Positions 4,257-62,946 of a stretch of DNA of 64,000 nt are shown one piece after another. Position 1 is the first letter of the stretch; every line of letters begins with the position of its first letter. Both the position numbers and the translations under genes were made by a program. Below the pieces are notes generated by a model. That model searched no databases and was not told the DNA's origin. It worked only from the letters and a program-made list of their open reading frames with translations. This stretch comes from Alphaproteobacteria bacterium (lineage in GTDB: Bacteria > Pseudomonadota > Alphaproteobacteria > MPNO01), in the NCBI GenBank assembly GCA_964291675.2, contig OZ219866.1:1856001-1920000 (forward strand), read 5' to 3'.

Positions 4257-5015
4257 ATGTGTACGCTCGTCATCCTGAGGCGGCCGGGCCTCGACTGGCC
4301 GGTGCTGATCGCGGCGAACCGCGACGAGCACGCCGAACGCCCGTGGCGTGCGCCGGGGCGGCACTGGCCCGACCGGCCCGACGTGGTCGCCGGGATGGAC
4401 GAGCTCGCCGGCGGCACCTGGCTCGGGCTTAACGACCACGGCGTGGCCGCGGGCGTGCTCAACCGGCCGGATTCGCTTGGCCCCGATCCCCGGCTGCGCT
4501 CGCGCGGCGAGCTGGTTCTCGAAGCCCTCGACCATGCCGACGCGGTCGCGGCAGCGACCGCGCTCGCCGCCCTCGACGGGCGCAGCTATCGCAGCTTCAA
4601 CCTGGTGGTCGCCGACAACCGGGACGCGTACTGGCTGCGCGGCTTCGGCGCGAACGGCGGCGGAAGGGTCGCGCTGGACGAGATCGGCGAAGGCCTGTCG
4701 ATGGTCACCGCGCACGACCCGAACGACGTGGCGGGCTCGGCGCGCACCAGGCTGTACCTGCCGCTGTTCCGCGACGCCGCCGCCCCGGACCCGGCATCCG
4801 GCGACTGGAGCGCGTGGACCGCGCTGCTCGCCGCGCGCGAGAGCCTCCCCGGGGCGGGGCCGGGGGAAGCCATGAACGTGGTGACCGACTCGCCCTTCGG
4901 CACCCTGTCGAGCTCCTTGATCGGCCTCGCGGCGGCGCATGTCGACGGCGGCAGGGCGGTGTTCCTGTCCGCCGCGGGGCGTCCCGGGGAGGCCCCCTAC
5001 CTTCCCGTGGAGTAG
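4257..5015 (+). CDS. NRDE / TANGO2 family protein
   Basis: MCTL...AANRDE...GGTWLGLN...SRGELV...FNLVVAD. Confidence 0.9.
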
Positions 5016-5130
5016 CCGGCTCCTGCGGCCGATCGCCGCCATTGTTTGCGACCCCGCGAATTGTTATATGACTCCAGCGGTCGCCGACGCGGGCGCCGCA
5101 TTCCTTTCCCCAGTTTTCGAGTCGCACGCC

Positions 5131-5895
5131 ATGGCCCGCCGCAGACGGATTTACGAGGGCAAGGCCAAGGTCCTGTTTGAAGGGCCGGAGCCGGGAACCC
5201 TCGTCCAGTACTTCAAGGACGACGCCAGCGCGTTCAACAACGCCAAGACCGGCACCATCACCGGCAAGGGGGTCCTCAACAACCGGATCTCCGAATACCT
5301 GATGCTCAAACTCGCCGAGATCGGCATTCCGACCCATTTCGTGCGGCGTCTCAACATGCGCGAGCAACTGATTCGCGAGGTCGAGATCATCCCGGTCGAG
5401 ATCGTGGTGCGCAACATCGCGGCCGGCTCGATCGCCGAGCGCTTCGGCATTGCCGAGGGCACGCCCCTGCCGCGCTCCATCGTCGAGTACTACTACAAGT
5501 CCGACGAGCTCAACGACCCGCTGGTCGCCGAGGAGCACATCACCGCCTTCGGCTGGTCGACGCCGCAGGAGCTCGACGAGATCATGCACATGTCGCTCCG
5601 GGTGAACGACTTCCTCACCGGGCTGCTGATCACCGTCGGCATCCGGCTGGTCGACTTCAAGCTCGAATACGGGCGGCTGTGGACCAATGACGAGATGCGC
5701 ATCGTGCTGGCCGACGAGATCAGCCCCGACAATTGCCGGCTGTGGGACGTGAAGACCAACGAGAAGATGGACAAGGACCGCTTCCGGCGCGACATGGGGC
5801 GCGTCGAAGAGGCCTATCAGGAGGTCGCGCGCCGGCTCGGCATCCTTCCCGAGAGCGCGCCGGGCGACCTGAAGGGTCCGGCGGTGATGCAATAG
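5131..5895 (+). CDS. purC: Phosphoribosylaminoimidazolesuccinocarboxamide synthase
   Basis: [48 protein letters not shown]. Confidence 0.97.
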
Positions 5896-5902
5896 CGTCC
5901 CG

Positions 5903-6145
5903 GTGCGGGCGCGCATCCATATCACGCTGAAGGACGGGGTGCTCGACCCCCAGGGGAAGGCGGTCGGCCAGGCGCTGGCCGCGCTCGGCTTCGCCGGCCT
6001 GGGCGAGGTCCGCCAGGGCAAGGTGATCGACATCGACCTCGCCGAGACCGACGCCGGGCGCGCCCGCGACAGCCTGCGCGCGATGTGCGAGCGCCTGCTC
6101 GCCAACACGGTCATCGAGGACTACGAGATCACGCTGGCGGAATGA
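5903..6145 (+). CDS. purS: FGAM synthase subunit PurS
   Basis: [13 protein letters not shown]...VRQGK...[14 protein letters not shown]. Confidence 0.97.
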
Positions 6146-6200
6146 CGCGCGCGAGGAGCGGAGACCGACAGGCCATGACCCCGCCGAGAGGTCCGGCGGC

Positions 6201-6863
6201 GTGAAAGCCGCCGTCATCGTCTTCCCCGGGTCCAACTGCGACCGCGACACCGCGGTGGCGATCCGGGCGGTCGCCGGGCAGGCGCCGGCGATGGTGTGGC
6301 ATGAAGAGACCGGGCTGCCCGCGGTCGACCTGATCGCGATCCCGGGCGGCTTCGCCTATGGCGACTACCTCCGCTCCGGCGCGATGGCGGCCCATTCGCC
6401 GGTCATGCGCGCGGTCGCGGCGCGGGCCCGGGCGGGCACCGCCGTGCTCGGCATCTGCAACGGTTTCCAGGTGCTGACCGAGGCCGGGCTGCTGCCGGGC
6501 GCGTTGATGCGCAACGCGGGGCTGCGCTTCGTTTGCCGCGACGTGGCGCTCCGGGTCGAGCGCTCGGACACCGTGTTTACCCGCCGCTACGCGCCGGGCG
6601 CCGAGCTGACCATGCCGGTCGCCCACAATGACGGGAACTACGTCGCCGATGGCGAGACCCTCGACCGCCTGGAAGGCGAGGGGCTCATCGCCTTCCGCTA
6701 TCGCGACAACCCCAACGGCTCGGCGGCGGCGATCGCCGGCATCTTCGATCCCGCCCGCCGCATCCTCGGCATGATGCCGCATCCCGAACGCGCCGCCGAG
6801 GCGGTGCTCGGCGGCACCGACGGCCGCGCGCTGTTCGAGTCGCTCGCGGACAGCCTCGCCTGA
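6201..6863 (+). CDS. purQ: FGAM synthase glutaminase subunit PurQ
   Basis: [37 protein letters not shown]. Confidence 0.97.
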
Positions 6864-6864
6864 C

Positions 6865-7619
6865 ATGGCGTTCGTTCCCCTCGGAGACGACAACCCGCGG
6901 CGCTGGATCCGCTTCCAGATCGTGACGCTGGCCATCGTCGCGGGCTGCGTGCTCGCCTTCCTGTGGCAGCTCGGGCTGAGCGCGCGCGAGTACGAGATCG
7001 CCCTGTTCCGCTTCGGCGTGGTCCCGGCGGTGCTGTGGGGCGACCGGGCGCTGCCCGCCGAAATCGCCGTCCTGCCCGCGCCCGCGACATTGCTCACCAG
7101 CATGTTCCTGCATGGCAGCTGGCTGCATCTGATCGGCAACATGCTGTTCCTCTGGGTGTTCGGCGACAATGTCGAGGACGCGATGGGGCATCGCCGCTTC
7201 ATCGTCTTCTACCTGCTTTGCGGCGCGGCCGCCGGGCTCGCCCATGCGGCGAGCGTCCCGGGATCGACGGTGCCCACGCTGGGGGCGAGCGGCGGGGTCG
7301 CCGGCGTGCTCGGCGCCTATTTCGTGCTGCACCCGAGGGTCGGCGTCTGGGGGCTGCTGTTCGGCATCATCCCGCTGCGCCTGCCCACGGTCATCGTGCT
7401 CGGCGGCTGGATCGGGCTCGAGGTGCTCAACGCGATGACGGTGCAGAGCGAAGGCGCCGGCATCGCCTGGTGGGCGCATGTCGGCGGCTTCGTCGCCGGC
7501 GCGGTGCTGATCCCGTTCTTCAAGCAGGCCCATGTGCCGTTGTGGGACAGCCGGCCGGGGGCGCGGATCCGCCGGGGGATCTCGTTCGCCTCGCGCCGCG
7601 GGCCGTGGGGGGGCCGCCG

Positions 7620-7623
<4 letters not shown>
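6865..7623 (+). CDS. Rhomboid family intramembrane serine protease
   Basis: [31 protein letters not shown] catalytic Ser, AWWAHVGGF catalytic His. Confidence 0.92.
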
Positions 7624-9794
<2,171 letters not shown>

Positions 9795-52890: not shown

Positions 52891-54786
52891 CTACTGACAG
52901 GCGAGGCACTCTTCGTAGTCGTTGGCCGACGCTTCCGCGGCGGCCTGGCCGTTGGCCGCGCCGACCGGCACCGGGGTCTCGGCGCGGGCCCGCGCAGCCC
53001 CGTTGCCGATGACCGCGACGTCGACCCTGTTGGCCACCTTGTCGGCGCGCTGGATCGAGCGCGAGCGGCAATAGTAGAGCGACTTCACGCCCTTCTTCCA
53101 GGCCTGGAAGTGGATGTCGTGCAGGGTCTTCTTGTGCACGTCGGCCGGCAGGAACACGTTGAGCGACTGCGACTGGCAGACGAACGGCGCGCGGTCCGCC
53201 GCGAAGTCGATCAGCCAGCGCTGGTCGACCTCGAACGCGGTCTTGAAGATCGCCTTCTCGTCGTCCGAGAGGAAGTCGAGATGGGCGACCGAGCCCTCGT
53301 TGACGGTGATCGAGGTCCAGACGTCGTCGGTGTCCCTGCCCTTCGCGGCGAGCAGCGCCTTGAGGTACTTGTTGCGCACGCTGAACGAGCCCGACAGGGT
53401 CTTGTGGGTGAAGGCGTTGGCCACGTTGGGCTCGATCCCCGGCGAGCAGCCGCCGCAGATGATCGAGATCGAGGCGGTCGGCGCGATCGCCAGCTTGTTG
53501 GAGAAGCGCTCCTCGAAGCCGTAATCGGCGGCGTCCGGGCACGGCCCGCGCTCGGCGGCGAGCGCCCGCGAGGCGGCGTCGGCATGGCCCCTGATGTGGC
53601 GGAAGATGTTGCGGTTCCACGCCTTGGCCGCGGCCGATTCGATCGGCACGTTCTGGCTCTGCAGGAAGGAGTGGAAGCCCATCACCCCGAGCCCGACCGA
53701 GCGCTCGCGGCTCGCCGCGTAGCGCGCCCGCGACATGCTGTCCGGCGCGCTCTCGATGAAGTCGTCGAGCACGTTGTCGAGGAAGCGCATCACGTCCTCG
53801 ATGAACAGCGGATCGTTGCGCCATTCGAGGAAGGTCTCGAGGTTGAGCGAGGACAGGCAGCACACCGCCGTGCGCTCCTCGCCGTGATGGTCGGGGCCGG
53901 TCGGCAGCGTGATCTCGCTGCACAGATTCGACATGCGGACCTGGAGCCCGGCGAGCTTGTGGTGCTCGGGCGCGGCGCGGTTCACGTGGTCGATGAAGAT
54001 GAAATAGGGCTCGCCGGTCTCGATCCGGCTGGTCAGCAGGCGGATCCACAGCGCGCGCGCCCCGATGCGGCGCACCACCGTCTTGTCCTTGGGGCTGATC
54101 AGCGCCCATTCCTCGTCGTTCTCGACCGCGCGCATGAAGGCGTCGGTGATCACCACCCCGTGATGCAGGTTGAGCGCCTTGCGGTTGGGGTCGCCGCCGG
54201 TGGGGCGGCGGATCTCGATGAACTCCTCGATCTCGGGGTGGTCGATGCCGATATAGACCGCCGCCGAGCCGCGCCTGAGCGAGCCCTGCGAGATCGCCAG
54301 CGTCAGCGAATCCATCACCCGGATGAACGGGATGATGCCCGAGGTCTTGCCGTTGGCGCTGACCTTCTCGCCGATCGAGCGCAGATTGCCCCAGTAGCTG
54401 CCGATGCCGCCGCCGCGCGCGGCGAGCCAGACATTCTCGTTCCACAGATCGACGATGCCGTCGAGGCTGTCGGACGCCTCGTTGAGGAAGCACGAGATCG
54501 GCAGGCCGCGCACCGTGCCGCCGTTCGACAGCACCGGCGTCGACGGCATGAACCAGAGCCGCGACATGTAGTCGTACAGCCGCTGCGCGTGCCCGGAATC
54601 GTCGCCGTAATGCGAGCTCACCCGGTAGAACAGGTCCTGGTAGCTCTCGCCCGGCAGCAGATAGCGGTCGTCCAGCACCGCCCTGCCGAACCCGGTCAGC
54701 AGGGCGTCCCGGTCGCGATCGATCTCGACCGCGACGTCGCGCCTGGACTGAAGCAGGTCAAGCTTCGAGGAAACCAGATCTAGCAC
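52891..54786 (-). CDS. nrdA: Class Ia ribonucleotide reductase, alpha subunit (short, no obvious ATP cone)
   Basis: PSTPVLSNGG..GLPISCFL, SNLCSEI, CCLSSLN, AIAPTASIS, KSLYYCRS, C-terminal CLACQ. Confidence 0.95.
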   Translation of the reverse strand: MLDLVSSKLDLLQSRRDVAVEIDRDRDALLTGFGRAVLDDRYLLPGESYQDLFYRVSSHYGDDSGHAQRLYDYMSRLWFMPSTPVLSNGGTVRGLPISCFLNEASDSLDGIVDLWNENVWLAARGGGIGSYWGNLRSIGEKVSANGKTSGIIPFIRVMDSLTLAISQGSLRRGSAAVYIGIDHPEIEEFIEIRRPTGGDPNRKALNLHHGVVITDAFMRAVENDEEWALISPKDKTVVRRIGARALWIRLLTSRIETGEPYFIFIDHVNRAAPEHHKLAGLQVRMSNLCSEITLPTGPDHHGEERTAVCCLSSLNLETFLEWRNDPLFIEDVMRFLDNVLDDFIESAPDSMSRARYAASRERSVGLGVMGFHSFLQSQNVPIESAAAKAWNRNIFRHIRGHADAASRALAAERGPCPDAADYGFEERFSNKLAIAPTASISIICGGCSPGIEPNVANAFTHKTLSGSFSVRNKYLKALLAAKGRDTDDVWTSITVNEGSVAHLDFLSDDEKAIFKTAFEVDQRWLIDFAADRAPFVCQSQSLNVFLPADVHKKTLHDIHFQAWKKGVKSLYYCRSRSIQRADKVANRVDVAVIGNGAARARAETPVPVGAANGQAAAEASANDYEECLACQ

Positions 54787-54879
54787 CCGTCACCCCCCGC
54801 CGTTATCCGGCCCGTTTGCGGATCTGCGAAACGGCGCCGAAAACGAATCGGTTGCCGAAGCACCGCGAACCCCCAGCTT

Positions 54880-54927
54880 GCACAAGAAATTGTGGTCTCG
54901 CAAGAACAAACCTACCAAACATTGTGT
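54880..54927. promoter_or_regulatory. Tandem NrdR boxes upstream of nrdA
   Basis: GCACAAGAAATTGTGG (54880-54895) and CTACCAAACATTGTGT (54912-54927), 32 bp apart, resembling acaCwAtATaTwGtgt. Confidence 0.7.
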
Positions 54928-55016
54928 TATGCACGGCGACGAATTCCCCTGTTCGAATCCAATATTCGTCATTTGTTCGTCAATTGTACCAGCTAGGTTC
55001 GACGGCACAAGCTGTC

Positions 55017-55031
55017 GTTCGCCCTCTGTTC
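55017..55031. promoter_or_regulatory. LexA-type box upstream of nrdA
   Basis: GTTC-gccctct-GTTC, perfect; a one-mismatch copy ATTC-gtcattt-GTTC at 54964-54978. Confidence 0.45.
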
Positions 55032-55062
55032 CGATTCGAATTGCGTGAATCCCGGGGATAGA

Positions 55063-55078
55063 CCACAAGATATTGTGG
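55063..55078. promoter_or_regulatory. Distal NrdR box
   Basis: CCACAAGATATTGTGG near-perfect palindrome. Confidence 0.7.
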
Positions 55079-55093
55079 TCGGGCGAACGCCCC

Positions 55094-57427
55094 TCAAGTC
55101 GCCGGATCGGCGCGGCACATCCGGGCCAGCGCGTCCGGGCGGATCGGGATCTCCGTCACCTCGACCGCGAAGGGGGCGAGCGCGTCCTCGACCGCCGCGG
55201 CGACCGCCGCGGCCGCCGGCACGGTGCCGCTCTCGCCCACCCCCTTGACGCCGAGCGGGTTCAGGCCGGTCGGCGATTCGAGGTGCCGGATGGCGATCGG
55301 CGGCAGCTCGACGGCGCCGGCGATCGTGTAGTCGGCGAGCGTCGCGGTGAGCGGCTGCGCCTCGCCGTCGAAGACGATGCGCTCCAGGATCGCGGTGCCG
55401 ATTCCGTGCGCGACGCCGCCCCGTACCTGGCCGTCGACGATCAGCGGGTTGATCATGCGCCCGCAATCGTGCACCACGACGTAGCGCAGGATCGCCACGT
55501 GTCCGGTCTCCGGATCGGCCTCGACCTCGGCGACGTGGCATCCGTTGGCGTAGCTCAGCGCATCGAAGGGCAGCGCCGCGGTGGCCTCCAGCCCGGGGGA
55601 GGCGCCGGCGGGGAGCGCGTAGCCGGGCGTGCCGTAGACCGCGTTGGCGAGCTCGCCGAAGCCGACGGAGAGCTCCGCCACGCCGCGCACCCGGGCGCAC
55701 CCGTCGACGAGCTCGATGTCGTCGGGCGCCGCTTCGAGGCGTAGCGCGGCGAGGCTGCGCAGCTTGTCCGCCACCTCGCTTGCCGCCGTCAGCGCCGACG
55801 AGCCGGCATTGACCGCCTGGCGGCTGGCCGAGGCGCCGATGCCGATCGCCATCGCGGCGGTATCGCCCATCACGATGTCGATCGACGCGGGGTCGACGCC
55901 GAGCCTGTCGGCGCAGATCTGCGCCAGCATGGTCCGCGTCCCCTGGCCGATCGCCGTCGCGCCGGTGACCAGGCTCACCCGCCCCGACGGGGCGACGCGC
56001 ACCGTCACCGCCTCGAACGGGCCGCGCCCGGTCCCCTTGACGTAGTTGGCGAGCCCGATGCCGAGATGGCGCCCTTCGGCGCGCGCCGCCGCCTGCCGCG
56101 CCCGGAACCCGTCCATCCCGGCGGCGTCCAGCGCGGCGTCGAGGCAGGCCGGGTAGTCGCCGCTGTCGAGCACGATGCCCGAGCCGCTGCGCGTCGCAAG
56201 CGGCCGCGCATAGGGCATCTCCTCGGCGGCGATGAAGTTGCGCCGCCGCACCTCCTCGCGCGCCAGCCCGGTTGCGGCGGCGATGCGGTCGACGATGCGC
56301 TCCATCGCGAAGATCCCCTGCGGATGCCCGGCGCCGCGCACCGGTGTGGTGGGCACCTTGTTGGTCACCGCCACCCGCACCCGCATCCGGTAGGCCGGCA
56401 AACGGTAGGGGCCGGGCACCACGGTCGCGGCGTTGTAGGAGAGGTTCAGCCCGCGCGCGGTATAGGCGCCGTGGTCGTGGATCATCTCGCCGCGCAGGGC
56501 GAGCAGGCGGCCGTCCGCGTCGGTCGCCGCCTCCATCTCCCAGTACTGGTCGCGCTCCTGGGTGGTGGCGGTGAAGTGCTCGCGCCGGTCCTCGATCCAC
56601 TTGACCGGACGGCCGAGACGCCGCGCCGCGTGGGCGATCACGATGTCCTCGGGGTAGACCACGAGCTTGGGCCCGAAGCCGCCGCCGAGATCGGCGGCGC
56701 GGACCGCGATCCGGCTCTCGTCGAGCCCGAGCGTCGCCACCAGGGCGCGCAGCGCGCCATGCGGCGCCTGGCTCGACAGAAACAGCGTCAGCCGGTCGTC
56801 GAGCGGGTCGGGTACGGCGACGGCGCCGCGGCACTCGATGGCGAGGCCGAGCCCCTTGTGCTGCTTCAGCGAGACCCGCACGCGATGGGCGGCGGCGGCG
56901 AAACCCGCCTCGACGTCGCCATAGCCGATCTCGTACTCGGCGAGCAGGTTGTCGTCGAGATGGCGATGCGCGCGGGGCGCGCCCTCGGCCAGCGCCTCGC
57001 TGCAGTCGGAGGCGGCGGGCAGGGCGCGGTAGTCGATTTCGACCGCCGCGGCCGCGTCCTCGGCGGCGTAGCGGCTGTCGGCCAAGACCACGGCGACCGG
57101 CTCGCCGACATGGCAGACCTCGTCCCGGGCGAGGATCTGGCGGTCCAGTATGTGGCGGTAGGACGGGCTCGGGAGCGCCGTCACCAGCCGTTCGGCGGCG
57201 AGATGCGGCGCGATCTCGGCATGGCCCAGCACCGCCGCCACCCCGGGCCGCGCGGCGGCGGCCGCGCTGTCGATGCCGGCGATCCCGGCATGGGCGAAGG
57301 GGCTGCGGACGAACGCCGCGTGCAGCATCCCCGGCAGGCCGATGTCGTCGACGAAGCGCCCGGCGCCGCGCAAGAGCGCCGGGTCCTCCAGCCGCTTGAT
57401 CGGCTTGCCGATCAGCGTGGAGCTCAG
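55094..57427 (-). CDS. Xanthine dehydrogenase family molybdopterin-binding large subunit (CoxL-like); probable CTG start
   Basis: IGKPIKRLEDPALLRGAGRFVDD, GGGFGPK, WIEDRRE, PVRGAG, GQVRGGVAHGIG, GVKGVGESG. Confidence 0.88.
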   Translation of the reverse strand: MSSTLIGKPIKRLEDPALLRGAGRFVDDIGLPGMLHAAFVRSPFAHAGIAGIDSAAAAARPGVAAVLGHAEIAPHLAAERLVTALPSPSYRHILDRQILARDEVCHVGEPVAVVLADSRYAAEDAAAAVEIDYRALPAASDCSEALAEGAPRAHRHLDDNLLAEYEIGYGDVEAGFAAAAHRVRVSLKQHKGLGLAIECRGAVAVPDPLDDRLTLFLSSQAPHGALRALVATLGLDESRIAVRAADLGGGFGPKLVVYPEDIVIAHAARRLGRPVKWIEDRREHFTATTQERDQYWEMEAATDADGRLLALRGEMIHDHGAYTARGLNLSYNAATVVPGPYRLPAYRMRVRVAVTNKVPTTPVRGAGHPQGIFAMERIVDRIAAATGLAREEVRRRNFIAAEEMPYARPLATRSGSGIVLDSGDYPACLDAALDAAGMDGFRARQAAARAEGRHLGIGLANYVKGTGRGPFEAVTVRVAPSGRVSLVTGATAIGQGTRTMLAQICADRLGVDPASIDIVMGDTAAMAIGIGASASRQAVNAGSSALTAASEVADKLRSLAALRLEAAPDDIELVDGCARVRGVAELSVGFGELANAVYGTPGYALPAGASPGLEATAALPFDALSYANGCHVAEVEADPETGHVAILRYVVVHDCGRMINPLIVDGQVRGGVAHGIGTAILERIVFDGEAQPLTATLADYTIAGAVELPPIAIRHLESPTGLNPLGVKGVGESGTVPAAAAVAAAVEDALAPFAVEVTEIPIRPDALARMCRADPAT

Positions 57428-57894
57428 CTCTCCCGCCCCCGCTCGGTGACCACGCGCTCGAACGCCGCCAGGGTCTCCTCGCTGACATGGTGCTCCAGGC
57501 CCTCGGCATCGGCGCGCGCCGCGTCCTCGCTGACGCCGATCGCCTGGAGGAAGGCGACCACGATCTGGTGCCGCCGCCGCGAGGCCTCGGCGATGCGCCG
57601 CCCCTCGTCGGTCAGGAAAATCGCGCGATAGGGCTGGGTGGTGACCAGCCCGCTCTGCTGCAGCCGCGCGACCGTCTTGGTGACGCTCGCATGGGTCACG
57701 CCGAGCCGGCGCGAGATGTCGGCGGAGCGCGCCTCGCCGGTCGAGTCGATGAGGTCGGCGATCAGCTCGACATAGTCCTCGGCGATCTCGGTCTGACGCG
57801 CCAGCCGGGTCTGGCGGTGATGCCCGGCCTGCTCGTCGGGCTCGACGAGCACCGGCGCCACCTTCGCCGGCCTCCTGCGCGTGTCCTTCGCCAC
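57424..57894 (-). CDS. mntR: Manganese-binding transcriptional regulator (DtxR/MntR family)
   Basis: AEDYVELIADL...EARSADISRRLGVTHASV...PYRAIFLT...RRRHQIV...DAEGLEHHVSEETL. Confidence 0.92.
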   Translation of the reverse strand: MAKDTRRRPAKVAPVLVEPDEQAGHHRQTRLARQTEIAEDYVELIADLIDSTGEARSADISRRLGVTHASVTKTVARLQQSGLVTTQPYRAIFLTDEGRRIAEASRRRHQIVVAFLQAIGVSEDAARADAEGLEHHVSEETLAAFERVVTERGRES

Positions 57895-57946
57895 CCGGGT
57901 CCCCCGCCTTGCCGCGCCGCGCCGACTATGCCGGAGCGCGAGCCGC

Positions 57947-57989
57947 TTGACAATTCTGGGCCGGGGCCAAATAAGTTAGCCATGGTTAA
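57947..57989 (+). promoter_or_regulatory. sigma70 promoter and MntR/DtxR-like operator for the cytochrome-ABC operon
   Basis: TTGACA at 57947-57952; near-palindrome TTAGCCATGGTTAA at 57976-57989 in an AT-rich island between divergent mntR and the operon. Confidence 0.6.
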
Positions 57990-58016
57990 ACAGTTCAGCG
58001 CGGGGAAAGACTGACA

Positions 58017-59849
58017 TTGGCACGCAACCGGGTTCGGGGGACGGCCCGGCCGGCGGCCGCGCTGCTCTGCCTCGCCGTCCTGCTGGCGGGCACGGCCTCG
58101 GCCCATGTGGCGAGCCGCGCCGAGTGGCACCCGCTGGCCGCCGCCTATCTCGACGCGGTGTTCGCGAGCCGGATCGACCCGGTCGACTGGCGGGGGATCG
58201 CGCGGCGCTACGACGGCACCGATCCGGCGTTCCGCCATGTCGGTTCCGAGCCGGCCTTCGCCGCGCTCGCCCGGCTCGCCCGCTTCGCCGGGACCGATCC
58301 CGGCGCGGCGATCCGCCGGGCGATCGCCGCGCGCGACGCAGGCGCGCTGAGGCAGGCGGCGGCGCGGGCCAACGCGACCGCGCTCCGCGCCGGGCTGGAG
58401 AGGGTTCGCGGGCTGCTGAACAGGCCGCGCGAGGCGCGCGCCGAGCTTCGTTCCGCCCGCCTCCTCTATCGCGGCTTCGAGACCGGCCTGCGCGCCCGCG
58501 ATCCGGCGGCGCACCGGCGTCTCGGGCTCGCCTGGCTCTCCCTCGCCACCCTGCTCTCCGGCGGGCAAAACGGGGCGGAGGCGGAACGCCTGATCGGCTT
58601 GCTGGCGGGCGAGATCCGCGCCCGGTTCGAGGCGGCGGCGCCGCCCTTGCCGCCATCCGCCCGGCTGCCGCCGGGCGGCGCGCTGGTCGAGCAGCGGCCG
58701 CTGCCCCGCGCGGTGCTCAATTTCGAGCGGCGCGGGGTGGAAGAGAAGACGCTCTTCCTCGTCGCCTATGGCGACATGCTGTTCGATTCGCCGGAAATTT
58801 TCGGCGCGCCGGCCCGCAGCCTCGGCCTCGCCTGCTCGTCCTGCCACAACCGGGGCGACGTCAACCGGGCGCTGTTCGTCCCCGGGCTCAGCCGCCGCCC
58901 CGGCGGGATCGACGTCGACAACGGCTTCTTCAACCCGCGCGGCAATGACCGGCGGTTCGACCCGCTGGACACGCCGAGCCTGCGCGGCATCCGCTTCACC
59001 GCGCCCTACGGGCGGGACGGGCGCACGGCGAGCCTGCGCGAATTCGTCCGCAACGTGATCGTCGGCGAGTTCGGCGGCGCGGAGCCGACCCCGCTGATGC
59101 TCGATGCCCTGCTCGCCTACATGAACGAGTTCGACTTCCTGCCGGCGCCGCTGCTGGCGCGCGACGGGCGCCTCAACGAGCGCGCGGGCGCGGCGGCGCG
59201 GCGCGGCGAGGCGATCTTCAACCGCCCCTTCCCCGGCATGGCGGGCCGGTCGTGTGCGACCTGCCACGTGCCGGACGGCAATTTCATCGACGGGCGGCGC
59301 CACGACATCGGCTCGGTCGCGGCCTCGATGCCCGGCGCCCGCGACGGCGCGCTGGATACCCCGACGCTCCTGGGCATCCGCTACACCGCGCCCTATTTCC
59401 ACGACGGCTCGCTGGCGACGCTCCCCGCCGTGGTCGCCTGGTTCGACCGGCGCTACCGCCTCGGCCTCGATGCGGGCGAGCGGGCCGACCTCGCGGCCTA
59501 TCTGGAGGCGGTCGGCACCGGGGAGCATCCCTTCGAGGCGTTCGACGGCACCAACACGCGCTTCCGGCTGGGCTTCGAGGAGGCTTCGACCTTCCTGTCG
59601 ACGCTGGACACGCTGATCCCGGCGCGCGACCGGCGCCATGCCTTGCTGCTGCTCGCCACCGTCGGCCGCGATCTGCGCTCCGATGCGGCGGCGATGGACA
59701 ACATCGCGGCGCTCGGCCGGGTGTCCGAGCTGGCCGCGAAGATCGACGCCATCTCGGACGCGGTCTCGGCGGAGGACTGGGCGGCGGCCGAGCGGCTGTG
59801 GGCCGGCTACAAGCAGGCGGAGGCGCGTCATGCGGCCGAGCTCTACTAG
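58017..59849 (+). CDS. Secreted di-haem cytochrome c peroxidase (bCcP/MauG superfamily)-like protein with extra helical domains
   Basis: Sec signal ending ASA; CSSCH (58833-58847) and CATCH (59253-59267); DTPSLRGIRFTAPYGRDG and DTPTLLGIRYTAPYFHDGS..DLAAYL. Confidence 0.82.
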   Translation: MARNRVRGTARPAAALLCLAVLLAGTASAHVASRAEWHPLAAAYLDAVFASRIDPVDWRGIARRYDGTDPAFRHVGSEPAFAALARLARFAGTDPGAAIRRAIAARDAGALRQAAARANATALRAGLERVRGLLNRPREARAELRSARLLYRGFETGLRARDPAAHRRLGLAWLSLATLLSGGQNGAEAERLIGLLAGEIRARFEAAAPPLPPSARLPPGGALVEQRPLPRAVLNFERRGVEEKTLFLVAYGDMLFDSPEIFGAPARSLGLACSSCHNRGDVNRALFVPGLSRRPGGIDVDNGFFNPRGNDRRFDPLDTPSLRGIRFTAPYGRDGRTASLREFVRNVIVGEFGGAEPTPLMLDALLAYMNEFDFLPAPLLARDGRLNERAGAAARRGEAIFNRPFPGMAGRSCATCHVPDGNFIDGRRHDIGSVAASMPGARDGALDTPTLLGIRYTAPYFHDGSLATLPAVVAWFDRRYRLGLDAGERADLAAYLEAVGTGEHPFEAFDGTNTRFRLGFEEASTFLSTLDTLIPARDRRHALLLLATVGRDLRSDAAAMDNIAALGRVSELAAKIDAISDAVSAEDWAAAERLWAGYKQAEARHAAELY

Positions 59850-60696
59850 GCGCCTCGCGCTCGCGCTTGCGCTCGCCGCGCTGGCCGCCTGGCCGGCGGC
59901 GGCGGACCGGCCGCTCACCGTCGCCTTCGTGCCGCAGGAGAACCCGGAGAAGCTGCTCGGCGACGTGCGCGCCATCGGCGCCTATCTGGAGGGCGCGACG
60001 GGACGGCGGATCGAGCCGCGCCTCACCATCGACCACGCGGCGGCGATCGAGAGCCTCGCGGCCGGGCGCGCCGACATCGCCTTCATGGGCGCGCTGCCCT
60101 ATGTGATGGCGCGCTCGCGCATCGGCGCGCGGGCGCTGCTGTCGGAGGTCTATCGCGGCAAGCCGAGCTACCGGGGCGCGGTGTTCGTGCGCCGGGATGG
60201 CGGGATCGCGCGGCTGGCGGAGTTGAGGGGCAAGTCCATCGCCTTCGCCGACCCGATCTCGGAATCGGGCTTCCTCTACCCGCTCGACCTGTTCGTCGAG
60301 GCCGGGCTGCTGGCCGCGCGCGACGACCCCAGGGCGTTTTTCGGCGAGGTCTATTTCGCGGGCGGCTACCAGCAGGCCATCCAGGCGGTGGCCAACGGGC
60401 TGGTCGACGCCGCCGGGGTGAGCATCTACGCGACGCTGCTGCTCGATGCCGGCCAGCGCGGCGCGGTCGCGGCGATCGCCCGCACGCCGCCGATCCCGTC
60501 CCATGTCGTGGTCGCCCGGGACGGGCTGGAGCCCGGCCTCCGCACCGCCTTCGTCGAGGCGATGCTGGGGCTCAACGCGCCCGCGAGGCGGCATCTGCTG
60601 AAACACGTCTATGGGCCGGACGGCTATGTCAGGCCGGACCACGCGGCCTATGACCGGGTCGCCGCGATGGCGCGCAAATACGGGCTGATCCGGTGA
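59830..60696 (+). CDS. PhnD/PtxB-fold ABC substrate-binding protein with an atypical ligand set
   Basis: Signal peptide, VAFVPQENP, ADIAFMG, LRGKSIAFADPISESGFLYP, AVANGLVDAA, TPPIPSH. Confidence 0.82.
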   Translation: MRPSSTRRLALALALAALAAWPAAADRPLTVAFVPQENPEKLLGDVRAIGAYLEGATGRRIEPRLTIDHAAAIESLAAGRADIAFMGALPYVMARSRIGARALLSEVYRGKPSYRGAVFVRRDGGIARLAELRGKSIAFADPISESGFLYPLDLFVEAGLLAARDDPRAFFGEVYFAGGYQQAIQAVANGLVDAAGVSIYATLLLDAGQRGAVAAIARTPPIPSHVVVARDGLEPGLRTAFVEAMLGLNAPARRHLLKHVYGPDGYVRPDHAAYDRVAAMARKYGLIR

Positions 60697-61517
60697 GCGC
60701 CGACGCGCTTCGCCTGTCGGGTCTCAGGGTCCGCTACGCCGCCGATGTGGAGGTTGCGCTGGCGATCGACGCGCTCGCGATCGCCGCCGGCGAACGCGTC
60801 GCGGTGATCGGGCCGAGCGGCTCCGGCAAGACCACGCTGTTGCGCGCGGTTCACGGGCTGGTCGCGCCGGAAGCCGGCACGGTCATGCTGGACGGCGTGG
60901 ACACGGCGTCGGCGGCGGCGCGCAGCCGCGTCTTCCGGCGCCGTCATGCCGCGGTGTTCCAGGAGTTCCAGCTCGTCGAGCGCGCCTCCGTGCTCGGCAA
61001 CGTGCTGTGCGGCCGGCTGGGCCACGCGCCGGTGCTGCCGAGCCTGCTCGGCCTGTTCGGCGCCGCCGACCGGGAGGCGGCGCTGGCGGCGATCGGGGCG
61101 ACCGGGCTCGGCGACTACCCGCGGCGCCGCGTCGACACACTGTCGGGCGGGCAGCGCCAGCGCGTCGCGGTCGCCCGCGCGCTCGCCCAGGCGCCGTCGC
61201 TGATCACCGCCGACGAGCCGGTCAGCAATCTCGACCCCGTCATCGCCGACGACATATTGCGCGCGCTCATGGGCTCGGCGCGCGATCACGCGATCACCGT
61301 GCTCGCCGCCGTGCATCACCCGGCGCTCGCCACCGCGCATGCCGACCGGGTGATCGGGCTCGCCGGGGGCGAGATCGTCCATGACAGCGCGGACGGCGCG
61401 CCGCTCGACGCATCGGCGCTCAGGCGGATCTACGGCCGCAGCGTGGCGCCGCAGATCGTCCAGGACGTGACGCCCCGCGAAGCCGGCGATGCGCGCTCCC
61501 CTCGCAACGTGGCGTAG
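60693..61517 (+). CDS. PhnC-like ABC transporter ATP-binding protein
   Basis: GPSGSGKT, FQEFQLVERASVLGNVLCGRL, LSGGQRQR, ADEPVSNLDP. Confidence 0.88.
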   Translation: MSADALRLSGLRVRYAADVEVALAIDALAIAAGERVAVIGPSGSGKTTLLRAVHGLVAPEAGTVMLDGVDTASAAARSRVFRRRHAAVFQEFQLVERASVLGNVLCGRLGHAPVLPSLLGLFGAADREAALAAIGATGLGDYPRRRVDTLSGGQRQRVAVARALAQAPSLITADEPVSNLDPVIADDILRALMGSARDHAITVLAAVHHPALATAHADRVIGLAGGEIVHDSADGAPLDASALRRIYGRSVAPQIVQDVTPREAGDARSPRNVA

Positions 61518-62265
61518 CAGCCTCGGCCGCGCGGCGGTGGCTCTCGGCATCGTCGTCGCGATCGCCTGGGCCTGGGCCGGGACCGGGTTCGATCCGGCCG
61601 CGCTCGGCATCGGCCTGCCCCGGCTCGGCGACTTCCTCGCCCGCATGGCGCCGCCCGATCTCAGCATCGCCGGCGTGGTGTTCCGGGCGATGCTGGAGAC
61701 GGTGCAGATCGCGCTGCTCGGCACCTTCCTCGGCGCTGTGCTCGCAATCGGGCTCGGCCTGCTGGCGGCCGCCAATTTGACGCCCGCCTGGGTCCACCAG
61801 CCGGTCAAATGGCTGCTCGGCGCGATCCGCGGAATCCCGGTGATCCTGCTCGCGCTGATGTTCGTCAGCGCCTACGGGCTCGGCCCGCTGCCCGGCGTGG
61901 CGGCGATCGCGCTGCATTCCTCGGGCATGCTGGGCAAGTTCTACGCCGAGGCGTTCGAGGCCGCCCGGCCCGGCCCGGTCGAGGCGCTGAGGACCGCCGG
62001 CGCGGCCTGGCCGCAGATCGTCCGCTTCGCGATGCTGCCCCAGATCGCCCCCGAGCTCGCCCGCGACACGCTGTTCCGCTTCGAGCTGAATCTGCGCGAA
62101 TCCCTGGTCCTCGGCCTGGTCGGCGCAGGCGGGATCGGCTTCTACATCCAGCTCTACGCCCGCGCATTCCACTACGACAAGGTGGCGACGCTGACGCTGG
62201 TCGTGCTGGCGATGGTGGTGCTGGTCGAGCAGGCGAGCGTGCTCGCACGGCGGCGGCTGAGCTGA
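61489..62265 (+). CDS. PhnE-like ABC transporter permease
   Basis: MLETVQIALLGT, GLGPLPGV, GMLGKFYAEAFE, RFELNLRESLVLGLVGAGGIG. Confidence 0.88.
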   Translation: MRAPLATWRSSLGRAAVALGIVVAIAWAWAGTGFDPAALGIGLPRLGDFLARMAPPDLSIAGVVFRAMLETVQIALLGTFLGAVLAIGLGLLAAANLTPAWVHQPVKWLLGAIRGIPVILLALMFVSAYGLGPLPGVAAIALHSSGMLGKFYAEAFEAARPGPVEALRTAGAAWPQIVRFAMLPQIAPELARDTLFRFELNLRESLVLGLVGAGGIGFYIQLYARAFHYDKVATLTLVVLAMVVLVEQASVLARRRLS

Positions 62266-62403: not shown

Positions 62404-62946
62404 CTAGCTCGCGATCTGCGGGCCCATCTGCTTGACCGCGCCGGTCTCCAGGTTGAAGGCGATGCGCGGGATCACGTCCAGATTGGTTCCCGTCACCCGG
62501 ACGAAGCGCGCGTCGTCGGGATAGTCGATCGAGTGGATCTTGCCGTCCGCATAGATCCCGGCATGCCCCGGCGTCAGCCGGTAGGATTTTTCCGGCCGGA
62601 CCTCGCCGCGGCCGGGATCCGAGCCGTCGTCGAGCCGCTCCCACTCGGTCATGTCGGTGTATTTGGTCGCCTGGCCGTAGATCGCCCAGGAGGCGCCGTG
62701 GTCGTGCGGCGGCGAGACCCGCGCGCTCGCGTTGATGTGGGACAGCACCTGGAAGCCGAGATCGGGATCGTCGTAGAGCACGCGGACCCCGCGCTCGACG
62801 CCCGGCCCGCAATATTCCTCGACGAACTCGGGCACCCGGAGCAGCCGTTCGAGGTCGCGGCGGACCTTCTCGCGACCGCCGGGGCCGGGGTCTTCGCCGA
62901 GATGCCTGCGGCAGTCCTGACAGAACTCTTCCAGCGTATAGGCCAT
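62404..62946 (-). CDS. Cysteine dioxygenase-like cupin protein
   Basis: LYDDPDLGFQVLSH...SPPHDHGASWAIYG...IHSI; three-His cupin pattern. Confidence 0.7.
   Translation of the reverse strand: MAYTLEEFCQDCRRHLGEDPGPGGREKVRRDLERLLRVPEFVEEYCGPGVERGVRVLYDDPDLGFQVLSHINASARVSPPHDHGASWAIYGQATKYTDMTEWERLDDGSDPGRGEVRPEKSYRLTPGHAGIYADGKIHSIDYPDDARFVRVTGTNLDVIPRIAFNLETGAVKQMGPQIAS

Follow-up and report, generated by a model that had tools for sequence, protein, structure and literature searches.

The window, that is, the whole 64,000-nt stretch of DNA that was analysed, contains an operon encoding, in this order, a di-haem cytochrome, a PhnD-fold binding protein, an ATPase and a PhnE-type permease. It diverges from an mntR gene:

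57424-57894, minus strand: mntR, a DtxR-family manganese-type repressor of 156 amino acids (NF008273)
58017-59849, plus strand: cytochrome of 610 amino acids, TTG start, CCP/MauG fold, with two CxxCH motifs
59830-60696, plus strand: binding protein of 288 amino acids, PhnD/PtxB fold (PF12974, E = 3.2e-57)
60693-61517, plus strand: PhnC-like ABC ATPase (PF00005, E = 2.7e-29)
61489-62265, plus strand: PhnE-type ABC permease (TIGR01097, 256.6 bits, cut-off 216.7)

As stated in a preliminary description of this DNA, the four operon genes do overlap, by 20, 4 and 29 nt in succession. The reading frame of the binding protein opens at 59638, its likely start being the ATG at 59830, from which a signal peptide is encoded. 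The flanking genes (a Mo-cofactor dehydrogenase, a ribonucleotide reductase, an unknown 180-residue ORF and an MFS/Atg22-like gene) are of other kinds than C-P lyase, whose absence next to the operon had been pointed out; PhnJ (PF06007) also had no match in the whole genome (completeness 93.72%). It had further been anticipated that the transporter would be automatically annotated as a phosphonate system, and its homologues are indeed labelled as phosphate, phosphite or phosphonate transporters. The ATPase scores 223.2 bits against TIGR02315, under the cut-off of 266.1. The permease also matches PF00528 (E = 1.3e-17), and its passing of the PhnE equivalog cut-off would speak against a metal as the substrate.

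Linkage of these genes was surveyed in 80 loci, retained from 311 genomes encoding a relative and spanning Alphaproteobacteria, Thermodesulfobacteriota, Dadabacteria, Acidobacteriota and Spirochaetia. The binding-protein gene comes directly after the cytochrome gene in 79 of them, the sole exception stopping at a contig end. The ATPase is present in 74 loci and the permease in 70, and every locus devoid of an expected ABC gene ends within 1.7 kb. By tblastn, a divergent mntR lies 100-250 nt away in 54 loci and a co-directional DtxR-family gene adjoins in four more, giving 58/80 for the DtxR/MntR family; one further adjoining regulator, with DtxR and FeoA domains, was recognized by Pfam (locus L031). 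In Thermodesulfobacteriota, these co-directional regulators are DtxR proteins of full length that carry a FeoA/SH3 domain. This use of the same regulator family in two arrangements argues for a functional tie. The neighbourhood survey that had been proposed for cytochrome homologues has thus revealed the phnDCE-like genes at their side and, in most loci, the metal regulator.

Seventeen loci that offer at least 1 kb of upstream sequence, from Acidobacteriota, Spirochaetia, Geminicoccales and Hyphomicrobiales, gave no adjacent DtxR-family gene by tblastn. Their neighbours vary (kinases, dehydrogenases, thioredoxin-like proteins), and a box-like palindrome is present in two of them (L033 and L036). 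These loci would count against a reading tied to MntR. In two loci from one related genus (L098 and L099), mntR diverges from a 411-residue form of the cytochrome lacking the N-terminal domain, and no ABC genes were found within about 8 kb of this short form. The N-terminal domain and the ABC genes appear thus to co-occur.

The mntR product scores 199.2 bits against NCBIfam NF008273, "manganese-binding transcriptional regulator MntR" (cut-off 153), and is matched by Escherichia coli MntR (2h09, E = 1.9e-38). Its residues D40, E43, H109, E131, E134 and H135 align without gaps to D8, E11, H77, E99, E102 and H103 of Bacillus subtilis MntR (1on1), which we take to be the manganese ligands. Judged from this alignment and score, the regulator is an MntR of the manganese type. 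Three features lie in the gap between mntR and the operon:

57947-57952, plus strand: TTGACA, -35 hexamer of the proposed operon promoter, with constant spacing to the palindrome across the mntR-linked loci of both clades
57973-57992, no strand: 20-bp near-palindrome on the -10/+1 region, candidate MntR operator (repeat search)
57925-57953, minus strand: promoter-like site for mntR (TTGTCA, 17 nt, CATAGT; 9/12)

The hexamer and the near-palindrome had both been noticed at the outset and are confirmed, but the full plus-strand promoter was not called by a promoter scan of the gap, because no -10 meets the rule of the scan; the weakness of this -10 counts against the importer reading given below. 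On the minus strand, one promoter-like site was found, versus a mean of 0.2 in shuffled sequences. Its -35 overlaps the plus-strand TTGACA and its -10 stretch is kept in Defluviicoccus-like loci.

The arms of the palindrome (57976-57985 and 57980-57989 in the repeat search) are 90% complementary. The succession of TTGACA and palindrome is kept in orthologous loci of two orders, in both alphaproteobacterial clades. When scored against the perfect palindrome of one locus (L090), at least 14 of 20 positions match in 56/80 loci. Of the 54 loci where mntR is divergent, 52 are among these, and in 52 the palindrome occupies a fixed place after the -35. A site matrix gave a single strong match over the 4.8-Mb genome, 30.3 bits at the mntR-operon gap; the second best, beside an IS, reaches 15.3 bits, and none else exceeds 16 bits. 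Since the sites of the cassette itself served to build the matrix, this uniqueness means only that there is no second copy of this variant. The conservation of the -35 and palindrome, together with the single 30.3-bit match, indicates more than chance. Compared by eye, the palindrome shares its half-site core and 4-nt spacing with the enterobacterial MntR consensus quoted in PMC1698941. It looks like a conserved operator-like site overlapping the promoter, and is a candidate MntR operator.

The binding protein passes the subfamily model TIGR01098 (146.5 bits, cut-off 112.05) and stays under the cut-off of the PhnD equivalog TIGR03431 (141.5 bits versus 261.1). Its closest solved structure is PtxB (5o2j, E = 3e-25), and the ligands of its nearest structurally solved relatives are phosphite, arsenate, arsenite and hypophosphite; we know of no PhnD-family protein that carries a metal. 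The ligand and cap residues described for Trichodesmium Te_PtxB (PMC5700983, section 7), D22, Y55, Y100, S130, T131, S132, H160 and Y208, align in this order to Q36, H69, Y114, S144, E145, S146, Y180 and H225. Three of the six residues that contact phosphite, and the two of the cap, are thus replaced (Y55 by His, T131 by Glu, H160 by Tyr, Y208 by His and D22 by Gln), and the Ser-x-Ser anion hole at the helix end is retained. Among 56 unique sequences, Q36, S144, E145, S146, Y180 and H225 are invariant, position 114 is Tyr in 55 with one gap, and position 69 is His in 53 and Gln in three. From the residue types at aligned positions, this 2-His/Glu/2-Tyr pocket looks remodelled towards metal-type ligands. 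The Glu or a His could alternatively serve a protonated or neutral oxyacid, which was counted against the metal reading.

The cytochrome is predicted to consist of three helical or haem-binding blocks behind a signal peptide, for which the model shows low pLDDT:

58017-58115, plus strand: signal peptide, residues 1-33, a hydrophobic stretch to A-S-A followed by a conserved mature N-terminus
58116-58661, plus strand: N-terminal helical domain, residues 34-215, containing a four-helix bundle (model, pLDDT 89.7)
58662-59537, plus strand: di-haem core, residues about 216-507, of CCP/MauG/MbnH/hydrazine-synthase-gamma fold (structure matches)
59538-59849, plus strand: C-terminal four-helix bundle, residues 508-610, and stop codon (model)

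The haem-binding motifs are C273-H277 and C413-H417. Pfam CCP_MauG (37.8 bits, cut-off 25.6) and RoxA-like_Cyt-c (28.8 bits, cut-off 26.7) are both passed. The best NCBIfam match is the MbnH family TIGR04039, with 51.7 bits, far under the cut-off of 362.85. The core gives VIA Z scores of 14.5 to 3o5c, 13.6 to 5c2v_C (Foldseek E = 1.1e-4), 13.4 to 6e1c and 13.1 to 3l4m. For the N-terminal domain, the structure search returned only generic four-helix-bundle matches (best Z 8.5), and the matches of the C-terminal bundle (Z about 13) are also generic.

A complex of cytochrome and binding protein was modelled with a score of 0.68, the best of three controls reaching 0.00. This mark is attained by 58/80 solved complexes and 2/110 mismatched pairs, counts that are only approximate for this pair, as it was modelled from our own alignments and with haem present. 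At least 84% of contacts recur between runs, with a partner pLDDT of at least 84. The predicted interface comprises residues 138-182, 217, 270 and 554-570 of the cytochrome and 67-71, 138-142, 174-192 and 202-215 of the binding protein. The latter correspond to the invariant motifs around H69, D141 and Y180. G170, W173 and L174, the few invariant residues of the N-terminal domain, lie at the interface centre. The N-terminal helix bundle is thus predicted to dock on the pocket region of the binding protein.

The five genes probably form an MntR-repressed importer of a metal, probably manganese, with a redox or maturation partner. The best explanation as a whole, to which we give a probability of about 0.5, is an MntR-controlled metal importer with a docked di-haem redox enzyme. 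We probably have here a manganese uptake system of a new kind, of which no description was found in print. MntR loaded with Mn(II) would occupy the 20-bp palindrome, which covers the -10/+1 region, and switch the operon off; expression would follow when manganese is scarce. The PhnD-fold protein would have lost its phosphite/phosphonate pocket, and the set of His, Glu and Tyr residues next to the anion hole could fit a metal cation, probably manganese, perhaps bound jointly with a small anion in the manner of transferrin-type proteins. Through its extra N-terminal bundle, the di-haem enzyme would dock in the periplasm on the pocket side and perform a redox step needed for loading. This step could be a change in oxidation state, Mn(II)/Mn(III), or a release from Mn(III) chelates or oxides; alternatively, the enzyme may act on the binding protein itself. 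The preliminary description, which proposed a Mn/Fe importer whose cytochrome alters the redox state of the metal or its chelate, is partly supported: the comparative tests that it put forward each came out in its favour, and there are at least two readings, the metal redox change and a MauG/MbnH-like maturation of the binding protein.

In this maturation, the enzyme would oxidise a Tyr, His or Trp of the binding-protein pocket into a ligand site, as MbnH does with the copper protein MbnP. Import of a metal under MntR control would remain, but the haems would never touch the metal. Such a role is rather unlikely, despite the MbnH family being the best, albeit far sub-threshold, NCBIfam match, the structural matches to MbnH (6e1c) and MauG (3l4m), the overlap of the two genes, and a model which sets the pocket motifs against the enzyme, with interface residue 270 beside the first haem motif. 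CCP and hydrazine-synthase structures indeed score as high as MauG and MbnH. Moreover, the MbnH Tyr located 14 residues after the FHDG histidine, presumably the haem ligand of MauG and MbnH, aligns to Phe476 in the cytochrome family. The short form, which stands with mntR in the absence of a binding-protein gene, implies that the enzyme has a role without that partner. A different cargo, Fe(III)/Fe(II), Co, Cd or Zn sensed by the DtxR-family regulator, or iron and manganese together, is unlikely. Ferric-binding proteins have a comparable Tyr/Tyr/His/Glu ligand set with an anion hole, the co-directional regulators of Thermodesulfobacteriota carry the FeoA/SH3 domain of full-length DtxR types, and one short cytochrome relative is paired with an EfeM/EfeO iron-uptake-type protein. 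Against this, the alphaproteobacterial regulator passes the MntR equivalog cut-off and its operator resembles an MntR box. It also keeps Asp and Glu at the positions where the iron-sensing DtxR and IdeR have Met and Cys.

Two further explanations leave the metal aside. The transporter might be much what its annotation says and import a reduced-phosphorus compound or another small oxyanion (phosphite, hypophosphite, arsenite or selenite) that the di-haem enzyme oxidises in the periplasm, mntR being a mere neighbour. The binding proteins nearest in structure (PtxB, ArrX, AioX and HtxB), the TIGR01098 and PhnE models passed, and the preserved Ser-x-Ser anion hole and Y114 all point that way. This appears quite improbable: of the six residues that bind oxygen, three have changed, as have the two of the cap, with Glu at one position; the scores stay below the PhnD and PhnC equivalog cut-offs, and PhnJ was not found in the genome. 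The DtxR-family linkage, in two gene arrangements and several phyla, and the conserved operator-like site on the operon promoter also speak against it. Finally, the cytochrome could be a periplasmic peroxidase made at low manganese to replace manganese-based antioxidants, next to an ABC system importing an unrelated solute. The fold is that of bacterial cytochrome c peroxidases, MntR regulons are linked to oxidative stress elsewhere, and the short form occurs with mntR alone. This is nevertheless very improbable: the near-obligate, fusion-like linkage to the transporter, the docking domain and the modelled complex would be left unexplained, and the genome already holds a canonical CCP (184.5 bits).

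An MntR-controlled importer with a docked di-haem enzyme would combine traits of several known systems. The PtxB, PhnD, HtxB, AioX and ArrX proteins with PhnCE-type ABC partners share its fold, Pfam PF12974 and transporter layout. The operon described here differs by opening with a haem-enzyme gene, by its MntR-type regulator, by the absence of a catabolic partner gene nearby, and by the replaced pocket residues and missed PhnD cut-off. The MbnH-MbnP and MauG-preMADH pairs, of which MbnPH is linked to metal homeostasis, have the same di-haem CCP/MauG fold and likewise an enzyme encoded beside a periplasmic metal-related partner that it is predicted to bind. In contrast to them, the cytochrome scores far below both NCBIfam cut-offs, has Phe for the MbnH Tyr and two added four-helix bundles, and its partner is an ABC binding protein, absent in short-form loci. 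EfeUOB and the imelysin/EfeM pairs with haem enzymes, which serve redox-coupled iron uptake, also associate a periplasmic haem enzyme, a metal-binding protein and an importer under a metal regulator. Here, however, the enzyme is a c-type di-haem protein and not a DyP, and the importer is an ABC system instead of an FTR1 permease. The matches of the N-terminal domain to imelysin (Z 6.8, rank 45) and EfeM (Foldseek E = 2.9) are in the chance range. TorS-TorT and chemoreceptors also use periplasmic four-helix-bundle domains to dock binding proteins. LytS-XylFII resembles the cytochrome in its four-helix bundle, 5xsd_L being among the tied top matches of the N-terminal domain (Z 7.9), and in the predicted contact of that domain with a binding protein; helix bundles generally give matches of this kind, and the bundle is fused here to an enzyme, not to a sensor. 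With the MntR regulon importers MntH and SitABCD/MntABC, the locus has in common an MntR-equivalog regulator and an MntR-box-like palindromic operator architecture, but the operon encodes no Nramp and no cluster A-I (PF01297) importer. The divergent layout of regulator and target resembles the mntR-mntH adjacency described in PMC1698941.

No Nramp was found in the genome, which, like the lack of PhnJ, was counted in favour of a metal importer. Nramp occurs in 3/41 genomes of the order and is mostly missing whether or not the cassette is present, so that its absence here is a lineage trait. The two ZnuA-family proteins, whose subtype scores are all far under the cut-offs, comprise one ZnuA-like (248.4 bits) and one ambiguous member (AztC 67.6 bits, MntC 56.7 bits). 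In marine Alphaproteobacteria, the cassette is found on plasmids among genes for the handling of metals (CDF, ZIP, SCO, PCuAC and P-type ATPase), a setting that speaks for the metal reading; these neighbours are also largely devoted to efflux and copper handling and make it an odd place for an importer, which was counted against that reading. In one case, a short relative 47% identical to the cytochrome, on a Bradyrhizobium plasmid, overlaps the gene of an EfeM/EfeO-family metal-binding lipoprotein.

An mntR gene and a divergent operon encoding a di-haem cytochrome, a PhnD-fold binding protein, an ATPase and a PhnE-type permease lie side by side in this genome of 4.8 Mb and 69% G+C. The best named protein match is found in a Defluviicoccus sp. 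MAG (91% identical). The gene coordinates bear out the preliminary description, in which four overlapping genes were said to be transcribed away from mntR:

57424-57894, minus strand: mntR, 156 aa, NCBIfam MntR equivalog with a match to 2h09
57953-57925, minus strand: mntR-side promoter-like site
57947-57952, plus strand: TTGACA -35 element in the mntR-operon gap
57973-57992: conserved 20-bp unit of a palindrome, with arms at 57976-57985 and 57980-57989 (repeat search)
58017-59849, plus strand: cytochrome, 610 aa, signal peptide and two CxxCH motifs
59830 (likely start)-60696, plus strand: binding protein, PF12974
60693-61517, plus strand: ATPase
61489-62265, plus strand: permease

On the mntR side (52891-57894), a ribonucleotide reductase large-subunit gene is separated from mntR by one Mo-cofactor dehydrogenase gene; such a large-subunit gene directly adjoins mntR, on the same side, in a locus of a related genus with a shorter cytochrome (L099:4913-8848). 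Just past the operon, a 180-aa ORF (62404-62946, minus strand) has no Pfam or NCBIfam matches and is kept solely in the two closest genomes (L015 and L016, 94-96% identity).

Conservation of this arrangement was estimated by scanning one genome per species, which gave 311 positive genomes; the best 80 loci were kept and their neighbours counted. A binding-protein gene directly follows the cytochrome gene in 79 of these 80 loci, an ATPase gene is found in 74 and a permease gene in 70, and all loci without a transporter gene end less than 1.7 kb from the cytochrome. A divergent mntR lies 100-250 nt upstream in 54 loci, and a co-directional DtxR-family gene is present in 4 others. The linkage of cytochrome homologues to phnDCE-like and to mntR-type genes, which the preliminary description anticipated, is thus recovered among these loci. 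An adjacent DtxR-family gene was not found in 17 loci having at least 1 kb of upstream sequence, the neighbours of which are mutually dissimilar, and no conserved neighbour beyond the five genes was found across phyla. The cytochrome DNA is distinct in 74 of the 80 loci; many of those from Rhodobacterales are near-copies, which leaves far fewer than 80 independent lineages. These comprise a Defluviicoccus-like clade, marine Rhodobacterales and allies, Thermodesulfobacteriota/Dadabacteria, Acidobacteriota, Spirochaetia, Geminicoccales and Hyphomicrobiales. At the protein level, more than 1,252 full-length cytochrome relatives were counted among 8,000 scored candidates, and 3,292 cluster representatives were retrieved at E ≤ 0.001, including 151 at E ≤ 1e-30; many of the representatives are shorter and match solely residues ~200-510.

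Some additional genes are seen at individual loci. In one Acidobacteriota locus, a Phenol_MetA_deg outer-membrane protein gene (L061:7121-7933, E = 8.6e-23) lies directly 5' of the cytochrome gene on the same strand, and ~270-aa ORFs without Pfam matches occupy the equivalent place in Thermodesulfobacteriota loci (e.g., L031:6342-7139); these products could provide an outer-membrane entry channel. The latter locus adds one to those with a DtxR-family gene, having by Pfam a gene with DtxR and FeoA domains.

The regulator passes the NCBIfam MntR equivalog NF008273 (199.2 bits, cut-off 153), matches E. coli MntR (2h09) with E = 1.9e-38, and keeps D40, E43, H109, E131, E134 and H135 in alignments to 2h09 and 1on1, at the Mn-type ligand positions. 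As for the gap between mntR and the operon, where a TTGACA promoter and a near-palindrome had been reported, both sequence elements are indeed present, and the plus-strand promoter did not come out of the promoter scan: its sole hit is the minus-strand site, the -35 of which overlaps the plus-strand TTGACA, and the plus-strand -10 of the operon is weak. In both alphaproteobacterial clades, TTGACA is followed, after 16-17 nt, by an A/T-rich -10-like stretch running into the 20-bp palindrome. This position on the -10/+1 region fits repression. The palindrome is perfect in one of the compared loci, L090, and matches to it of at least 14/20, no more than 400 nt upstream, are found in 56 of the 80 loci. 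Such a match is present in 52 of the 54 loci with a divergent mntR; L033 and L036 have one with no adjacent mntR, and in L079 and L093 the sequence is too short to show any mntR. On visual comparison, the palindrome has the same inner half-site core and 4-nt spacing as the enterobacterial MntR consensus quoted in PMC1698941. The cassette resembles an MntR regulon in having an MntR equivalog and, by that visual likeness, an MntR-box-like palindrome at the target promoter. Table S5 of the same source, devoted to candidate MntR-box regulons, may contain such a site, for example that of the 'enigmatic' mntR of Mesorhizobium sp. BNC1.

A symmetric matrix was built from 24 distinct sites, all from the cassette's own loci, which makes the scan blind to divergent MntR boxes; over the whole genome it returned one site of 30.3 bits, that of the mntR-operon gap, the next best scoring 15.3 bits. 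This weaker site (G000:C1:193960, L096:2461, in the same genome) was rejected as a regulon member, as it adjoins a Mutator-family transposase/IS and ORFs without Pfam matches.

Bacterial Mn importers known so far are Nramp proteins (MntH), ABC transporters of cluster A-I (SitABCD/MntABC), MntX and a few P-type ATPases. Here, the Mn-sensor gene is tied to a machine unlike these familiar systems. Nramp is absent from the genome, and the two PF01297 proteins encoded elsewhere than in the cassette are respectively ZnuA-like and ambiguous, so that no canonical Mn importer is evident. The cytochrome is present in all 12 genomes of the genus, and in 28 of 41 relatives at E ≤ 0.001, some of these being weak CCP matches. 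Nramp occurs in 3 of 41 genomes of the order, all 3 in one genus, which has a short form of the cytochrome. Co-occurrence of Nramp and cassette over the 41 relatives was discarded as a test, the lineage effect being too strong.

That the transporter would be automatically annotated as a phosphonate system is confirmed by plasmid homologues, labelled phosphate/phosphite/phosphonate transporter with phnE. The permease passes the PhnE equivalog (256.6 bits, cut-off 216.7), whereas the ATPase misses that of PhnC (223.2 bits, cut-off 266.1) and the binding protein that of PhnD, TIGR03431 (141.5 bits, cut-off 261.1). The binding protein passes the broader subfamily TIGR01098 (146.5 bits, cut-off 112.05), stays below the cut-off of SBP_bac_11 (20.3 bits against 25), and has no match to PF01297, the PsaA/MntC/ZnuA family of cluster A-I. 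The neighbouring genes include no C-P lyase (phnG-M), ptxD or phosphonatase gene, as had been noticed at the outset, and PhnJ (PF06007) gave 0 matches genome-wide (genome 93.72% complete). The nearest solved relatives of the binding protein are PtxB, ArrX, AioX and HtxB. The phosphite ligands and cap residues given for Trichodesmium PtxB (Te_PtxB) in PMC5700983 align as follows:

Correspondence of the Te_PtxB pocket with the cassette binding protein
Te_PtxB D22, cap: Q36 here
Te_PtxB Y55, ligand: H69 here
Te_PtxB Y100, ligand: Y114 here
Te_PtxB S130, ligand: S144 here
Te_PtxB T131, ligand: E145 here
Te_PtxB S132, ligand: S146 here
Te_PtxB H160, ligand: Y180 here
Te_PtxB Y208, cap: H225 here

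By this alignment, three of the six oxygen-binding ligands are kept (Y114, S144, S146) and the others are replaced by H69, E145 and Y180. Q36, S144, E145, S146, Y180 and H225 are invariant in 56 distinct binding-protein sequences from all phyla; Y114 is Tyr in 55 of them, with one gap, and H69 is His in 53 and Gln in 3. The mean column identity of the family is 68% (22 sequences). The protein differs from standard phosphonate- and phosphite-binding proteins. From its sequence, the pocket of two His, one Glu and two Tyr, by a retained helix-end Ser-x-Ser, would be a ligand set of the metal-plus-anion type. Ferric-binding proteins and transferrins use such Tyr/His/acidic ligand sets, holding a metal together with a synergistic anion. 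An oxyanion as cargo, set against the three replaced ligands, the missed PhnD and PhnC cut-offs and the lack of catabolic genes nearby, appears very unlikely, even with half of the PtxB ligands and a PhnE-type permease on its side. Comparison with the other PhnD-like genes of the genome, intended as an internal control, was uninformative: it gave a single alignment, of 29% identity, with a gene that is itself atypical. A PhnD-family gene with an atypical His-rich pocket set (H, Y, S, H, S, P, H in a tblastn alignment) is located at G000:C2:2161595-2162290 (L005), on the same contig.

The cytochrome belongs to the bCCP/MauG superfamily, in view of its modelled two-domain di-haem fold and its two CxxCH motifs (C273-H277 and C413-H417), which show no variation among 67 sequences. 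The match to Pfam PF03150 reaches 37.8 bits (cut-off 25.6). The AlphaFold model (pLDDT 87.3) consists of a helical N-terminal domain (34-215) containing a four-helix bundle, the di-haem core, and a C-terminal four-helix bundle. The core is matched by cytochrome c peroxidase 3o5c (Z 14.5, 243 residues aligned, rmsd 4.4), by YhjA, and by hydrazine synthase gamma (Z 13.6), MbnH (13.4), MauG (13.1) and BthA (12.3). The NCBIfam subfamily models are all missed by a wide gap: 51.7 bits against 362.85 for MbnH, 40 against 443.85 for MauG, and 37.2 against 625 for hydrazine synthase gamma. In the alignment with MbnH, the Tyr found 14 residues after the FHDG histidine in MbnH is replaced by Phe476 in the cassette family; the sixth ligand of the second haem is taken here to be Met in peroxidases and Tyr in MauG/MbnH. 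Modelled alone, the N-terminal domain has a pLDDT of 89.7. It gives generic four-helix-bundle matches only (PsbQ-type, best Z 8.5; LytS sensor domain, 7.9); its scores against imelysin (Z 6.8, rank 45) and EfeM (Foldseek E = 2.9) are at chance level and speak neither for nor against an EfeM/imelysin origin, and an ESM Atlas search with residues 34-215 gave scores of 0.76, under lead level. The C-terminal bundle also has generic matches only, and the PsbQ likeness was set aside as not meaningful.

A model of the complex between cytochrome 34-610, binding protein 27-288 and two haems reached a score of 0.68, the best of 3 controls giving 0.00. Among solved complexes 58 of 80 attain this mark, and among mismatched pairs 2 of 110; these counts apply only roughly here because of the custom alignments and the small molecule in the model. 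At least 84% of contacts are shared between the runs, with a partner pLDDT of at least 84. The predicted interface involves residues 138-182, 217, 270 and 554-570 of the cytochrome, and 67-71, 138-142, 174-192 and 202-215 of the binding protein. G170, W173 and L174, the sole invariant residues in the bundle part of the N-terminal domain, are central to it, and the invariant motifs around H69, D141 and Y180 of the binding protein face the cytochrome. The model supports, short of demonstrating, binding between the two proteins.

The short forms bring further clues about the role of the N-terminal domain. In L098 and L099, two loci of one related genus, mntR is divergent from a 411-aa form made of a signal peptide, the core and the C-terminal bundle, with no N-terminal domain, and ABC genes were not found within ~8 kb; both genomes carry Nramp. 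The joint absence of domain and transporter fits a docking function for the N-terminal domain, and shows that, even where no transporter is present, the enzyme plays a role linked to MntR. The short mntR/short-form gap lacks the 20-bp box in both loci; a different small palindrome-like stretch is conserved between them (L098:8950-9200, L099:7530-7640). In L099 the short form is followed by a 339-aa ORF, an Arg/Pro-rich frame with no homologues, which was taken as spurious. Sampling 400 further genomes of the phylum yielded 1 match and no additional short forms. A more distant, 458-aa short relative (47% identity over the core) is carried by plasmid p186_1 of Bradyrhizobium sp. 186 (L102, locus 6072-8230), where, in a single case, its gene has a 4-nt overlap with the EfeM/EfeO-family lipoprotein gene upstream of it; the pair adjoins a type II secretion cluster and a gene of the alkaline phosphatase family.

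Two roles of the haems have to be weighed. The di-haem enzyme might act as a maturation enzyme for the binding protein, in the way that MauG and MbnH act on their partners, a reading compatible with the predicted docking and the shared core fold; the short-form loci argue against maturation as the sole haem role, and the proposal is judged unlikely. The preferred reading, with a probability of roughly 0.5, is that the cassette is an MntR-repressed metal importer, most likely for Mn, in which a di-haem enzyme docks on the PhnD-fold binding protein and serves it. The haems could change the redox state of the metal, as first proposed. The Tyr/His/Glu pocket, of the kind known for iron, could also accommodate another metal, which beside the Mn-type residues of the regulator looks quite unlikely as the cargo. 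A more detailed version of the manganese importer can be offered tentatively: the PhnD-fold protein would carry Mn in a Tyr/His/Glu site, loaded only while docked to a di-haem Mn(II)/Mn(III) switch. The two would act in the periplasm as an 'oxidase plus transferrin' pair for manganese, allowing bacteria to take the metal up from Mn(III) chelates/oxides or to capture Mn(II) in the form of tightly bound Mn(III), and the trait would be a mobile one, carried by plasmids in marine Alphaproteobacteria.

The module is a new combination of known parts, and no description of it was found in the full texts searched. EfeUOB associates a DyP-type EfeB, an FTR1-type EfeU and an M75/cupredoxin EfeO, in contrast to the c-type di-haem enzyme and ABC importer of the cassette. 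Should the cassette import a metal, the label 'phosphonate transporter' would be mistaken for a whole branch of annotated systems, a new class of ligand would be added to those of the PhnD fold, a di-haem peroxidase-family enzyme would acquire a role in metal trafficking, and organisms without MntH, such as the Defluviicoccus-like lineage, would have a candidate Mn route.

In marine Alphaproteobacteria, the five genes are found on plasmids. A DNA search of PLSDB gave 30 matching records, 19 of which cover at least 80% of the 5 kb and 25 of which are typed conjugative; six, in Phaeobacter, Tritonibacter and Celeribacter, match at ≥99%, and 44 records match at the protein level. Plasmids of Phaeobacter inhibens, P. 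gallaeciensis, Tritonibacter mobilis and Celeribacter indicus carry copies of the cassette with 100% identity over 5 kb (e.g., L067:7300-12300; NZ_CP010699.1, NZ_LR027556.1, NZ_CP004395.1). Such identity across genera points to very recent transfer between them. This conjugative spread in marine Rhodobacterales bears on marine trace-metal ecology, and the existence of cultured carriers (Phaeobacter, Tritonibacter, Roseovarius, Marinovum) makes the question directly testable. The plasmid neighbours are CDF, ZIP, SCO, PCuAC, DUF411, P-type ATPase, CcdA, DsbB and L,D-transpeptidase genes, a metal-related context, though one of largely efflux and copper handling that speaks partly against a starvation importer. 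The same metal island is seen on pDSHI01 of Dinoroseobacter shibae (L103, NC_009955.1 11667-22450; locus 4979-5810), where mntR and a 91-aa 'hypothetical protein' remain, the cytochrome-ABC operon is gone and a P-type ATPase gene comes next. The DNA match spans mntR and stops inside the 91-aa ORF, which looks like a deletion remnant; four more plasmids, including pDSHI03, have the same partial match.
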